Assembly: GCA_964016885.1 (NCBI GenBank)
Contig: OZ024743.1
Coordinates: 361,398,001 to 361,462,000, forward strand
DNA from: Eledone cirrhosa
Taxonomy: Eukaryota
Reading direction: 5' to 3'
DNA length: 64,000 nucleotides
Shown here: positions 25,853 through 64,000 of the stretch, piece by piece
How positions within the stretch are numbered: position 1 is the stretch's first letter
How the letters are laid out: every line of letters begins with the position of its first letter
Notes under the pieces: generated by a model
Seen by the model: only the letters and a program-made list of their open reading frames with translations
Database searches by the model: none
Told to the model about the DNA's origin: nothing
Program-made: the position numbers and the translations under genes

Positions 25853-26554
25853 ATATATATATATATATATATATACATATATGTATATATATGTAAGTAG
25901 AAGGGAATTTTAATTTGTTTGAAATACAACAAATATAAATGATTATATCTGATTCAGAGCACTGGACAGATTTTGGAGTAAATATTCAATGGTATTAAAT
26001 AAATGAATACAATATTTATAATACCATATTTATTCTATTATATATATTTCAAGGGTGCCAACATTTAGGTACGCTATCATCAGATAAAATACAAAATGTC
26101 TTATAAATATTTGACATAACCAAGGATAATATACCTTAACGGTTCAAGTTATCCCTGGAAAATGAGGGGAAGAGAAAAAAACGAGATATTGAAATTATTA
26201 ATATGAGTATGCAAATGAGGTTTATGTAAAAGGGGTGAAAAAAACGTTATTTTAGGTTTCTGTAAATTCTGTATTGAAGAAGATTCTGTAAATTGTGTAT
26301 TGAAGAAATATTTGATATAATTAATTGTAAAAACTCTATTAATCTCAGAAGAGAGATATTTAGTTCTTGCAGACATCGCCAAAATTCTACATTCAGAACA
26401 AATAACGATAAAAACAAATGACGAAACGAAATTAAATTTCGTTTCGTTTGTAACTCACTTTTGTATGACAGACGCTTACAAACGAAACGAAATTTAATTT
26501 CGTTTCGTTATTTGTTTTTATCGTCTCCGCTGAACCGGTACGTACTCATGCTCT

Positions 26555-26603
26555 ATGCAAATTAGTCTGCCCACTACTAATTTTCATAGAAAAAGCATAT
26601 AAC
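26555..26603 (+). promoter_or_regulatory. Octamer plus TATA-like box upstream of the HHR (also 27021; 37212 and 37657 on minus; 63478)
   Basis: ATGCAAAT lies 88-100 nt before the HHR core in all three arrays, with a TATA-like run ~45-57 nt before the core. Confidence 0.55.
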
Positions 26604-26647
26604 GATATGTGCTTTTACGATTCTCTAGAAAGGCCGGAAGATAGGTA

Positions 26648-26692
26648 AATATTGCTGATGAGATGTAACAACATCGAAACTAGTCCAATATT
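26648..26692 (+). ncRNA. Type I hammerhead ribozyme, canonical core
   Basis: AATATTG CTGATGA GATGT-AACA-ACATC GAAA CTAG TC CAATATT: 7-bp stem I, 5-bp stem II, palindromic minimal stem III, GUC cleavage site. Confidence 0.93.
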
Positions 26693-27113
26693 CCTTGTCT
26701 GGCTTTCTGGAGAATAGAGGAAAGGTGTTTCCTCGAAAACCAGTATGACTCTAAAAACCGGTTTGTCTGTGTGTTTACATACAGAATAGCTGGACACTCA
26801 CAGTAAAGTGACCAGTGAAAAACTCGGTACATCTACATATGTATACGTGTGTGTATTCATATGCATACTAGTATTTCAGTATACATATGTGGATGTACAT
26901 TTTTAACTTAATTGTTTAAGCGTCTGTCATACAAAAGTGAGTTACAAACGAAACGAAATTTAATTTCGTTTCGTTATTTGTTTTTATCGTCTCCGTTGAA
27001 CCGGTACGTACTCACGCTCTATGCAAATTAGTCTGCCCACTACTAATTTTCATAGAAAAAGCATATAACGATATGTGCTTTTACGATTCTCTAGAAAGGC
27101 CGGAAGATAGGTA

Positions 27114-27158
27114 AATATTGCTGATGAGTTGTAACAACAACGAAACTAGTTCAATATT
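27114..27158 (+). ncRNA. Type I hammerhead ribozyme, second unit of array 1
   Basis: AATATTG CTGATGA GTTGT-AACA-ACAAC GAAA CTAG TT CAATATT. Stem II has a compensatory A-U to U-A change relative to unit 1. Confidence 0.92.
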
Positions 27159-60539: not shown

Positions 60540-62822
60540 AGCTAAGAAAAACAAGACCACAAATTTCACAAGGTAGACAGTATTAAAAGATTGTCAACAT
60601 AGTTTTAGTTTGATGTAAGGAATGTAGAGAATAATAATAATAATATTAATAATAATAATGTATGTTTACAATTGTTTCGCTACTCCGTATTTCTGGATCA
60701 AATGGTTATAGATCATTATTGATCTGGTTTAGTTGAAAATAATTAACTTAGGTACAATTGAACAGCTCATTGGAACTTCAGAAGGAATATAAATTAAAAT
60801 AAGGAAAGAATGTTACATGAATGTAATGTTCCATATATTGGTATTTCACTATGGTGACCTGGGTATATCTATTGTCTGCCATAGTCGAGCAGTATTCTTC
60901 TGTCGAGGCTGCATTGTGTGAGATCTGCCTATGGGTAACAAGATGGCCGCCAATGGACATATTTACCTTACTAATTAGAGGGTGGTTTCAGGGGAAGTAA
61001 CTCCTCGAGAAATTAGAAATTGTGGGTAGTTTATAGTTAAGAAGTGCTAATTCTGTTCATTTTTTTTATAGAGAGACAATGTAAGGGAGGTAACTTATAA
61101 TTATCTAAGTTAGCTATAACTATTTAACGTATTAGCTATAAGTAAAAATGGGAATAGATGACTATGTTGGGTCAAATATTCTGTTGGCGAAGGAATTAGC
61201 CTTTCGATGTTGACAGCTAATAGTTACCTCCGTTCTATCGTTAATCTGTAGAGGTCACAAGAGTTTCTTTATTAATTGAACGGTTGGGCCCAAGCCAATA
61301 TATCCCATGTTAGTGAGTGTTCAATTTAAGGTTTTTAATGAGCCTAGCTAGAGATGTCGAACATCTGTTGTTAGGGTCTCGGAAGGAAAAAGAGTGCGCG
61401 TTATAGCGTACCTTAAAAGGGTTAGAGGTATAGCCGATATAGGAGCTGGTATGCGAAGCAGTTTTAACTGTGCACCTATAAACTATATTGGGTGTCAGGC
61501 AATGTCCGTTTAGTGGGCATGCATTAGGGTAATGGCAGTTGCAGTATTTTCTGCGGTTAGTGAGAGTACGGGTGTTTAAATTATGCGGTGGTCCGTGCTA
61601 GAAAGATTAGATGGGGGAGGTGTGCTACTAGAGTAAGTATTGGTGTAGTGGCGTGGTGTATTTGATGGGGGTGGTGGTACCGCGGTGTGGGAGTTATACT
61701 GTCTTAGTTTATGATGGTTACTGAATGCGATGTGGCTAGCTAGGTTAGGTGTTGTGGAGAATGAGAATTTAATGTTGTTTAAATATCTATGGTTGGGGGA
61801 AATGTTTAGATAGGATAGAGAAGAAGCGTTTAGAGATATTAGTGGCTAGATTAGATTAGATGAGAATGCGGGGTTAAGCCAGGTGATATTTCTAGGCCTA
61901 TTCCTTCTAAGGGTACTAGTGGAGTTGGTAGGGGCCTTCATATGGTTATTATTACCTGGACATTTGTTATTTGTCATCCCATTACTCATTCCTATTCTAG
62001 GGTTGATTTTTAGTTTGCTACTTGGAGTGGGAAGTAGGCCACTGCCACCATTAAGTTTCCCTATAGGTGCTGTTACTGCGAAAATTCCGGCGAATCTTGC
62101 TATATGCTAACGTATTTCTAGTTCTAGTGTTAAGTTTATTATGGTTGTGGTGAAATGCTGTGTTATGGCATTTAGGGATGTAGTAAATGGACTGTTCATA
62201 ACCAGATTCAGAAAGAGCCTTATTATAATATGCCGCATGGTTTATAAATATCTCCTCATTTGCTGATAGCATGGAGATCCTATACGAGATAGATTTGATT
62301 ACTGCTCTGATGACTGCCGGTGGGTGGTTAGAGTGTGGGCTAATATATGTAAGTATTTCACCTGGTTTATGATAAGGGTAATATAGGTTAATATTCTAGG
62401 GTAACGTCTAGGAAGTTTACTATTTTATGGTTATTTTAAAAGAATCTATGTAATTGTTTTTTGAGCAAGTCAATGCCTCGATTAGTCCAATTGTGAACTG
62501 CAAATAGAGCGTCGTCCCTATATATTCCGCCTTGCAAGGGATGGATTTCAGCTCTGATGTTATGTAATATGTAAATTCCAACTAAATCGGTGATTTGCGC
62601 AGAGTCACTTGAGCCCATAGTGATGTCAACATTGTCTGTTCTGTCTTTTCTAGTCCAGAGTGCTCCGTTGAATTCAATGATGGTCTGCCTAGCCATAAGT
62701 ATGATGTCAATCTCATTATTGGTTATATCAGAGTTGGTGCTGGCTAGGTTTAATGCTTTGTTGAGCAGTGCCGGGATTATTGAAGCGTAATAGCTGTCAA
62801 TGTCAAATTGGAGGAACCTCAT
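60540..62822 (-). mobile_element. Decayed 5'-truncated PLE (RT core 62436-62822, thumb, linker, GIY-YIG ~61200-61560, pseudo-LTR)
   Basis: LQFDIDSYYASI, MGSSDSAQITDLVG, GGIYRDDAL, WLNPAF, YCNCH..CPLNGHCL..IVY. An HHR 3' half GAAACAATTGTA lies at ~60666-60679(-). Confidence 0.88.
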
Positions 62823-62916
62823 AGATTCCTTGCAAATCAGGGACGATCAGTCACTGCGTATTTTTGAAAACAGCAGATATTTTCACTAGTTCTGACAGTT
62901 TGGCAGGTGAACAGTC

Positions 62917-62964
62917 AGCTGTACTGATGAACGGTGATACCCAGAAACATTAGTGTCTGCAGTT
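62917..62964 (+). ncRNA. Type I hammerhead ribozyme; sister copy at 63567-63608
   Basis: AGCTGTA CTGATGA A(C/G)GGT-GAT-ACCCA GAAA CA-TTAG-TG TC TGCAGTT, GUC site. Confidence 0.88.
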
Positions 62965-63083
62965 CTGATCACATGCCAACAGAAAAGCAAGAATGAAGGG
63001 TTCATTCTACTGACATAGCTATAAAATTTGGGCTTGCTTGCATAATTGCAACCAAATCGAATGCTATTATTAATATTCGAAAA

Positions 63084-63271
63084 TCAGGCGGTGGATTGGC
63101 AGTATCGGTAGAGGGTCGGACGCTATGCTTTCCTGCATAGTTACGTCCCTTTACGATCTGAGTTCAAATCCCGCCGAGGTTGACTTTTCCTTTCATCCTT
63201 ACGGGGTCGATAAAATAAAGTACCAGTAATGTACTGGGTAATTGCTGGCCTTGTGCCTAAAAGTAGAGACA
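63084..63271 (+). mobile_element. SINE inserted in array 3 with a probable 18-bp target-site duplication
   Basis: ATTATTAATATTCGAAAA at 63066-63083 and 63272-63289. The second unit has a single (empty) site near 63699. Confidence 0.85.
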
Positions 63272-64000
63272 ATTATTAATATTCGAAAAACTCAGATTAC
63301 ATTTATTGTGTTCAGCCATGTAGAGCGAAAACATTTTCTTTTTTATGTGAATTTGGCAAAGCCGGCCATTTATCGCTCGTATACAGGAAACTGACCGACC
63401 AGTCTGTTGCTATGCAAATCAGGCTGATCAGTGGATCTGATAATATGCAGATCTGACTGGTCAGCCAATCTGCTAATATGCAAATCAGGCCGATCAGTCA
63501 CTGTGTATTTTTGAAAATAGCATATATATTCACTAGTTCTGACGGTTTGGCAGGTGAACAGTGAGCTGTACTGATGAAGGGTGATACCCAGAAACATTAG
63601 TGTCTGCATACCAACACAAAGCAAGAATGAAGGGTTCATCTACTGACATGACCATAAAATTGAGGCTTGTTTGCATAATTGCAACCGAATCGAATGTTAT
63701 TATTAATAATCGAAAAACAGATTACATTTATTGTATTCAGCTATGTAGAGCAAAGAAATTTTCTTTTTATATATATATATATATATATATATATATATAA
63801 ATAAGTGGGCGAAGAAGAAGATTTTGTCAATTTACTTTTCAATTTACACGCCGAGGGGCGGTTTTTCTGCTATTATATTTAATTGGATGTGAAAAACGAT
63901 GAAATTGAACTCAATATAGCTATTAGAATTCATATATTTTTTCAAAGCATATAATATCAGCTAGAAACTTTTTTTTTTTTTTTTTTGTAGCAAAATAAAA

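Follow-up and report, generated by a model that had tools for sequence, protein, structure and literature searches.

Non-LTR retrozymes (LTR, long terminal repeat) have been described, together with their circular RNAs, from coral, mussel and axolotl, with Penelope-like elements (PLEs) proposed as their movers (Cervera & de la Pena 2020, PMC7229834), and vertebrate retrozymes have been argued to be non-autonomous PLEs from co-occurrence and from homology to pseudo-LTRs (pLTRs) (Li, Clavereau, Pollet, bioRxiv 10.64898/2026.07.22.740005). The class, its cleavage as dimers, its circular RNAs and its link to PLEs are already in print, including for a mollusc, the mussel (PMC7229834; bioRxiv 2026.07.22.740005). 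In the parts of the published accounts on which we draw, two questions are left: which enzyme moves animal retrozymes, and whether the circles serve as template. Here we analyse a stretch of 64,000 nt from Eledone cirrhosa (assembly GCA_964016885.1, contig OZ024743.1, positions 361,398,001 to 361,462,000; "the window"), which holds three arrays of hammerhead-bearing units, together with related loci elsewhere in the 3.0-Gb genome. The units are further families of the known class, non-LTR retrozymes, with an unusually clear mechanistic record. We read them, with a probability of roughly 0.6 when the mechanism as a whole is included, as three related families of non-autonomous PLEs. That a PLE mobilised them is very probable, that this partner was of the Neptune/Nematis type is fairly likely, and a circular monomer as the usual template is slightly favoured.

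Ribozymes, kinship and candidate promoter

An independent pattern scan of the window recovered six type I hammerhead cores in the arrays, all where an earlier note on this DNA had placed them, so that its cleavage coordinates were right; five further cores, which that note does not list, comprise three in coding-PLE repeats and a weak pair (Table 1). Rfam reported no hammerhead in the window at its gathering score; below that score, in 25800-38200, HH9 matched 26637-26708 (E 4.8e-7) and 27103-27174 (E 1.2e-6). The many microRNA matches in the same sub-threshold scan were put down to hairpin and microsatellite noise. In RNA folding, stem I is extended in every family and contains an internal loop, its distal arm being the GGC(A/C)GG motif, and the ribozymes are therefore canonical type I rather than minimal, as they had been called. 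The definition of minimal hammerheads (PMC4209133) does not fit families 1 and 2, which lack the extra base and have helix III and the extended stem I; family 3 has an ambiguous stem II base in this comparison. The stem II base is U.U in family 2 and A.A in family 3.

That the stems of the families differ and still pair is borne out by an ungapped alignment of six sequences, drawn from family 1, family 2 and a further, fourth one, an effective sample of three families, in which both partners differ in 10 of 16 pairs and pairing is kept in 95.8% of cells. The palindrome of helix III is likewise retained despite sequence change (ACUAGU/ACGCGU), and helix III oligomers are computed not to fold alone and to pair as homodimers (-6.2 to -10.2 kcal/mol). 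Among the 100 family-1 matches listed, many of which are from the same arrays, the two free stem II positions are complementary in 100/100 and the site is GUU in 93/100. Folded as a circle, the family-1 monomer has a predicted energy of -157 kcal/mol (z -10), with z -2.8 for family 2. Cleavage, expression and circularity of the units are predictions from sequence.

The claimed kinship of the three families also holds. Scored against doublet shuffles, homology outside the ribozyme (upstream) reaches z 17.3 for family 1 vs 2 and 8.2 for 2 vs 3, and is weak for 1 vs 3 (3.3). The units measure 441-482 nt, have a GC content of 0.36 (families 1 and 2), contain no reading frame of at least 120 amino acids within the arrays and show the motif order described earlier; as short, non-coding, low-GC tandem units with type I hammerheads they retain their assignment as retrozymes. 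Exact 35-nt hammerhead patterns match 7,760 times genome-wide for family 1, 15,032 times for family 2 and 1,191 times for family 3, with 0 matches to the reversed pattern for all three. Family 1 is young, with 97-99% identity in the best matches; the other two are older, their identity to the copies in the window being 93-95% for family 2 and 88-91% for family 3.

A fourth hammerhead repeat family was seen at locus L110 on the minus strand, with cores at 480 and 170 (spacing 310 nt), loop AACA, palindromic helix III ACGCGU and a likeness to family 1 of z 12 (ribozyme included). In a comparison with window 25900-28400, contigs of two runs coded as other organisms (X4, X6) contain the family-1 unit at unit length (495 nt in X4) and with a near single haplotype, neighbouring repeats being little covered; run X1, in contrast, has thousands of contigs. 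The unit-length contigs could be RNA or collapsed tandem.

In all three families the octamer ATGCAAAT lies 90-100 nt ahead of the core, with a TATA-like box between. Besides the copy in Table 1 it is found at 27021, 37657 (-), 37212 (-), 63412 and 63478, and it occurs twice in the family-3 unit. Octamer plus core gave 24,415 matches genome-wide (reversed control 0), and we regard the octamer as a candidate part of an internal promoter. The fourth family is without it, and a coding PLE of the window, PLE-Y, carries it in reverse orientation ~130 nt ahead of its ribozyme. The promoter of newt satellite 2 contains an octamer. That promoter is internal and of small nuclear RNA (snRNA) type (PMC2220036, PMC7229834).

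Insertion anatomy, candidate partner element and template

We classified 109 loci, namely the 36 best family-1 matches, the 25 best family-2 matches and a set of 48 chosen for their position within the first 22.7 Mb of contig C1, after dropping pieces wholly in the microsatellite part and clusters <250 nt. Of the insertions in these loci, 69 have two arms, 42 have one and 4 are unresolved. Their 3' ends cluster at two sites, A and B, ~55-70 nt apart, and 55 of the two-armed insertions pair one A with one B end, as against 1 AA, 1 BB (array 1 of the window) and 12 with an unclassified end; the nominal P of 1e-14 is optimistic because the A/B windows were fixed after looking at the ends of early loci. 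The position-sampled set alone gave 17 A/B, 0 AA/BB and 5 other. (TA)4 follows 153/180 3' ends, and independent DNA contigs show (TA)n behind site B (the loose end at 26987). In family 3 both ends are visible in 6/25 loci, all A/B, and the coding PLE-B of the window is A/B in 3/3 loci checked, with a tail of 184 nt. This pattern of partial tandems, inverted 5'-truncated arm, two 3' ends and (TA)n is the insertion signature of PLEs, as described by Craig et al. 2021 (PMC8557442). It tells more than any other feature of the units and was overlooked in the earlier note. In the PAc element, two internal start sites bound the tail, both strands are extended and a dimer is predicted (Frangieh et al. 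2024, PMC11167929); the A/B ends match this scheme. Region 26918..26987 would be where reverse transcription starts. Retrotransposition of the units, proposed in the earlier note, is supported by the A/B ends, (TA)n and head-to-head arms.

That the units are satellite DNA spread by DNA-only means, such as rolling-circle copying of extrachromosomal circular DNA (eccDNA) or recombination, would suit the arrays of 30-40 units and is scarcely credible in the face of two fixed 3' ends across the 109 loci, targets of (TA)n, 5' ends truncated at random and arms lying head to head, which are marks of target-primed reverse transcription. Long arrays show repeating multi-unit blocks (L164/L165 on C1, ~40 units; L081; L083; C1:5.74 Mb, ~30 units), so that satellites can arise where an inserted retrozyme afterwards expands locally.

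A second alternative, which the earlier note had named as one that would overturn its proposal, is that the units are pLTRs which remained after coding PLEs had been truncated at the 5' end. They do show full PLE anatomy, and Xenopus retrozymes resemble pLTRs (bioRxiv 10.64898/2026.07.22.740005). With flanks of 1.5-4 kb, however, the unit was the terminal repeat of a coding PLE in 0/134 loci, any PLE protein match being present in 14/134; the sequence upstream of a unit is another unit or an inverted arm, and no similarity was found to four local pLTRs (highest z 3.6, ribozyme included), taken from a genome with many more PLE families. The one candidate, L084, has a sense PLE open reading frame (ORF) ~150 nt upstream, but that PLE's own hammerhead-bearing repeat lies downstream of the array, which is therefore nested. 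For present-day copies this explanation is largely refuted and very improbable; an ancestral pLTR origin of the units is likely.

As to the candidate partner, PLE-B, of which 24,558 first-look candidates were counted genome-wide, has CNCRYPNACPLNGHC ahead of YIG, a linker of the CX2-5CxxC type after the reverse transcriptase (RT), and GIY-YIG at its C terminus, with Atlas matches of 0.96-0.98 to RVT_1/GIY-YIG families; its sequence assigns it to the Neptune/Nematis type, the two clades taken together. In protein searches the best matches to PLE-B stood at 40-47%, Argonauta and Octopus appearing alongside sea cucumbers and anemones, and a further search had a best match of ~60%. Direct head-to-head chimeras of retrozyme and PLE-B were seen in 2/37 distinct PLE-B loci. 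In the window chimera the PLE end lacks a tail and the retrozyme end has one, both at (TA)n; at L107, where one end of the locus is seen, a short inverted PLE-B piece lies inside the junction. Chimeras may alternatively have arisen by deletion between separate insertions. Four other candidates (L236, L191, L125, L100) proved to be nested or (TA)n-separated insertions; at L236 a family-2 copy had inserted into a PLE ORF in antisense orientation, duplicating 9 nt of target, and was later re-copied within an inverted PLE arm.

Coding PLE families with type I hammerheads of their own occur in the window (Table 1) and at L084 (~7150), L110 (1085) and L128 (6190), several with a palindromic helix III of TATATA type. 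The PLE-B terminal repeat (window ~60535-61000; L124) gave no canonical hammerhead in a pattern scan in which variant cores were not searched; canonical PLEs are said to have one.

Evidence on the template comes from haplotypes. In full units of 39 family-1 loci, subfamily markers (defined from the data, nine hypermutable or end positions being excluded by hand) are fixed within a locus in 113/127 locus-by-marker cases, compared with a mean of 8% and a maximum of 22% in 1000 permutations. Array 1 of the window accounts for 7/14 of the mixed cases, and in two-armed loci whose markers could be compared the arms agree in 21/26. The haplotypes form nested steps (127G then 292A; 157A then 280G then 396T), each step fixed array-wide. 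Among 156 single-locus variants, 118 are singletons and 30 partial. Family 2 shows 3.0 differences per 150 nt within loci vs 10.0 between, some within-locus pairs being double-counted owing to overlapping loci. The 5' ends are not enriched near the cleavage site (6/155 vs 6.4 expected). One haplotype across units and arms, together with this flat distribution of 5' ends, favours a reiterated monomer, probably circular, and we infer that elements pass again and again through a bottleneck of one unit and that an endless template is then copied round repeatedly, as a monomer circle would allow. An apparent cluster of family-1 5' ends at the cleavage site (L170 and others) was gone in the full count. 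L170, both arms of which start at an AATATT palindrome just past that site, is a single instance that would fit a 5' end cut by the ribozyme.

A pool of linear cleaved monomers, strung together by RT template jumping at ribozyme-cut ends, would yield units in tandem and, now and then, a heterodimer like array 1, and templated inserts are indeed present at arm junctions; an indel at the cleavage site was nevertheless found in 0/181 pieces, haplotypes are rarely mixed within a locus and 5' ends are not enriched there, making this explanation improbable. A weightier rival, still unlikely in our view, keeps the same elements and the PLE enzyme and takes as template a linear uncleaved multimer transcribed from a few homogeneous masters, the ribozyme being incidental or trimming and unit number changing through DNA slippage or unequal crossing-over. 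PAc uses unprocessed tandem RNA in vitro (PMC11167929), the long arrays at L081, L083 and L164/165 have multi-unit periodicity, and coding PLE-B has the same A/B ends with no obvious ribozyme by pattern scan. Linear copying from an internal promoter would, on the other hand, lose promoter-bearing sequence every generation; there are many stepwise nested haplotypes, each fixed array-wide in both arms; 5' ends are piled neither at the cleavage site nor, by eye, elsewhere; and ribozyme structure has been kept across ~35% divergence between families.

Several points weigh against the mechanism that we prefer, that of non-autonomous PLEs copied from a circular monomer, and some of them suit the linear multimer. 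The two units of array 1 bear different subfamily haplotypes, a heterodimer, and its B/B ends depart from A/B pairing. Only 8/156 single-locus variants are fixed or nearly so (7/8 in both arms), and in family 2 the nearest neighbour is in the same locus in 19/34 cases, a weaker signal. Uniform daughters would also arise if homogeneous masters were read as linear multimers, and arrays do expand locally (L164/165, ~40 units). The G10.1-C11.1 pair is missing from families 2 and 3; PAc ribozyme mutants insert normally, the main in vitro substrate being unprocessed RNA (PMC11167929), and 1/9 Xenopus dimers cleaved (bioRxiv 10.64898/2026.07.22.740005). On the side of the partner, no parent pLTR was found among the four compared, one apparent chimera (L236) was a nested insertion, and the window was itself the query, leaving an independent chimera count of 1/36 PLE-B loci.

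On the preferred mechanism, a unit of ~440-480 nt would combine a probable internal promoter, a type I hammerhead needing a partner copy for helix III, and a structured tail between two start sites. Transcription through tandem units would give a multimer, which the ribozymes would cut to monomers; these would be ligated to circles, in which, by analogy, the lone ribozyme would be silent. A protein, presumably of a Neptune/Nematis-type PLE, would then nick both (TA)n strands and prime complementary DNAs (cDNAs) at A and B, each cDNA would repeat the unit a variable number of times, and truncated 5' ends would be joined head to head, which is the pattern that the insertions display; later local expansion would enlarge some arrays, as their multi-unit periodicity shows. 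A more specific version, which is tentative and falls somewhat short of even odds, has a dimeric Neptune-type PLE protein on one circular monomer, priming the two nicked strands of a (TA)n target from separate fixed sites, one per active site, and rolling round the same circle twice. If it is true, the genome would directly record that animals transpose by way of ribozyme-made circular RNAs, passing each time through a bottleneck of one molecule, and the PLE tail would be the sign that the two strands have obligatorily different tasks.

Arrays and other repeats of the window

The window had been described as holding three tandem arrays with one type I hammerhead per unit, units of 466 nt (array 1) and 445 nt (array 2) and a loop AACA common to arrays 1 and 2. 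Our own computation reproduced both lengths, and the six cores and the units stand, with two corrections to the layout: 26405-26478 and 37746-37930 are inverted arms, and array 3 is split by a short interspersed element (SINE). One hammerhead per unit holds at the family level, and in the window fully for array 1, which alone is a clean dimer with two intact hammerheads, made up of a 74-nt inverted piece, two units and 45 nt. The second core of array 2 reads CUGACCA (G8C) and has the loop UAUA, so the shared AACA does not extend to it; G8C abolishes cleavage in PAc (PMC11167929). Array 3 comprises about 1.6 units, with its ribozymes 647 nt apart. Release of a ~450-nt monomer by transcription over two units, as envisaged earlier, would accordingly suit the layout of array 1 only, which could give unit-length RNA of 26686-27151.

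Array 1 is nested directly behind the GIY-YIG end of coding PLE-Y, whose repeats flank the array, and array 3 adjoins, head to head, the 5'-truncated RT remnant PLE-B.

Table 1. Coordinates of retrozyme arrays, ribozymes and associated elements in the window.
Feature	Position	Strand	Details
Array 1 (family 1)	26476..27451	+	two 466-nt units + 45 nt; 3' end at site B, followed by AT-rich/(TA)n DNA
Array 1 inverted arm	26405..26478	-	~70-nt tail only; 98.6% to 26990-26917; unit positions 442-466 + 1-49
Tail between fixed 3' ends	26918..26987	+	site A at unit ~438-443, site B ~46; 13-bp hairpin, fold z -2.3
Candidate promoter element, octamer	26555..26562	+	ATGCAAAT
Array 1 cores	26655-26685, 27121-27151	+	pattern scan
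Array 1 hammerhead, first	26637..26708	+	canonical type I, extended stem I, G10.1-C11.1, loop AACA, palindromic helix III ACUAGU; GUC site, predicted cut after 26685
Array 1 hammerhead, second	27103..27174	+	compensatory stem II change; GUU site, predicted cut after 27151
Array 2 (family 2)	36844..37751	-	two 445-nt units; core 37576-37546 intact with U.U stem II base; core 37131-37101 G8C
Array 2 inverted arm, 185 nt	37746..37930	+	stops at site A before (TA)n
Array 2 cores	37576-37546, 37131-37101	-	pattern scan
Solo 5'-truncated family-2 fragment	32819..33021	-	92% to 37280-37483; adjoins (TA)n
Array 3 (family 3)	62831..63768	+	partial unit, SINE, one unit; stops at site B before (TA)n
Array 3 cores	62924-62957, 63571-63604	+	pattern scan
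SINE-like insertion	63084..63271	+	87-93% to 51608-52205 and 49056-49246
PLE-B, broken, 5'-truncated coding PLE, Neptune/Nematis type	60535..62830	-	head-to-head with array 3; 3' end without tail, meets (TA)n
PLE-Y C-terminal GIY-YIG remnant	26284..26404	+	tblastn 42%, E 5e-5; translation CKLC...CRH
PLE-Y hammerhead-bearing repeats	25979-26255; 28036-28314		inverted; direct
Hammerheads in coding-PLE repeats	26083, 28210, 32251	-, +, +	pattern scan
Weak hammerhead pair	34863, 46115	-, +	pattern scan

The SINE insertion in array 3 takes up 206 nt including an 18-nt duplication (63066-63083 / 63272-63289). In 6/25 family-3 loci one SINE-like element occupies an identical position, the TATTATTAATA site, with differing 5' truncations (window 63066-63289, L058, L069, L077, L079, L080), and the same SINE was also seen in the (ATT)n tract of a PLE-B repeat (L124), a recurrent site preference; in the window it also forms a 3-copy tandem (copies at 51608-52205 and 49056-49246).

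Much of the window is nested repeat debris. Further inverted-repeat insertions lie at 5525-7720, 22859-25615, 29275-32444 and 35320-36714, two with PLE coding remnants and many ends at (TA)n. Long interspersed element (LINE) remnants at 14874-15677, 54142-55627 and 1-372 comprise two RT fragments (Pfam RVT_1) and a probable endonuclease start. An Rfam Histone3 match at 33320-33365 (-), just over the gathering score and inside a repeat, is unrelated and probably due to chance.

Comparison with described systems

No description of cephalopod retrozymes was found in the literature searched, and Dfam, Repbase and the supplements of PMC7229834 and the preprint may list the families. The word "octopus" does not occur in the main text of PMC7229834, nor "ribozyme" in the O. 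vulgaris repeat paper, and 235 Rfam hammerhead-1 matches are on record, unanalysed, for giant squid. The A/B count and the haplotype argument were not found in the parts of the published retrozyme and PLE accounts drawn on. About 24,000 units can be counted, one family is young (97-99% identical), the start sites are defined, a partner can be suggested and the A/B rule is near-strict, so that both questions left by those accounts could be answered by counting across the genome and by a single in vitro assay of published type. Should neither part of the reading hold, what is left is a good annotation of plentiful repeats missed by Rfam at its gathering score.

With the retrozymes of PMC7229834 the units share short low-GC tandem organisation, one type I hammerhead each, thousands of copies and PLEs alongside. 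Family 1 resembles HHR_Amex1 in its weak palindromic helix III, and family 2 has the U.U stem II base in common with HHR_Amex2. The units are longer here, 441-482 vs ~170-400 nt, and are known from sequence alone, whereas circles and cleavage have been demonstrated for those retrozymes; mobilisation by PLEs and rolling on circles are proposed there, without insertion-level evidence in the text cited. Newt satellite 2 is likewise a tandem hammerhead repeat with dimer cleavage, and has an internal snRNA-type promoter where only a motif is seen here (PMC2220036, PMC7229834).

The vertebrate retrozymes of Li et al. (bioRxiv 10.64898/2026.07.22.740005) belong to the same class, have led to the same conclusion of non-autonomous PLEs and span 51-972 bp, a range into which the present unit length fits. 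As far as the cited parts of the preprint go, it sampled no mollusc, leaves the mechanism open and does not deal with tails, inverted arms, targets or haplotypes; the pLTR homology reported there was not found here (four pLTRs), and the insertion signature was.

The closest match in insertion anatomy is with coding elements, PAc Poseidon of Anolis (PMC11167929) and the PLEs of PMC8557442, which likewise have two internal start sites round the tail, insert at AT-rich targets, form partial tandems and a 5'-truncated copy in inverted orientation, and often bear the tail at just one end. Their tails are 30-40 nt long, as against ~55-70 nt in the non-coding units described here and 184 nt in PLE-B, and what the present families add to those elements is a counted, near-strict pairing of one A with one B end.

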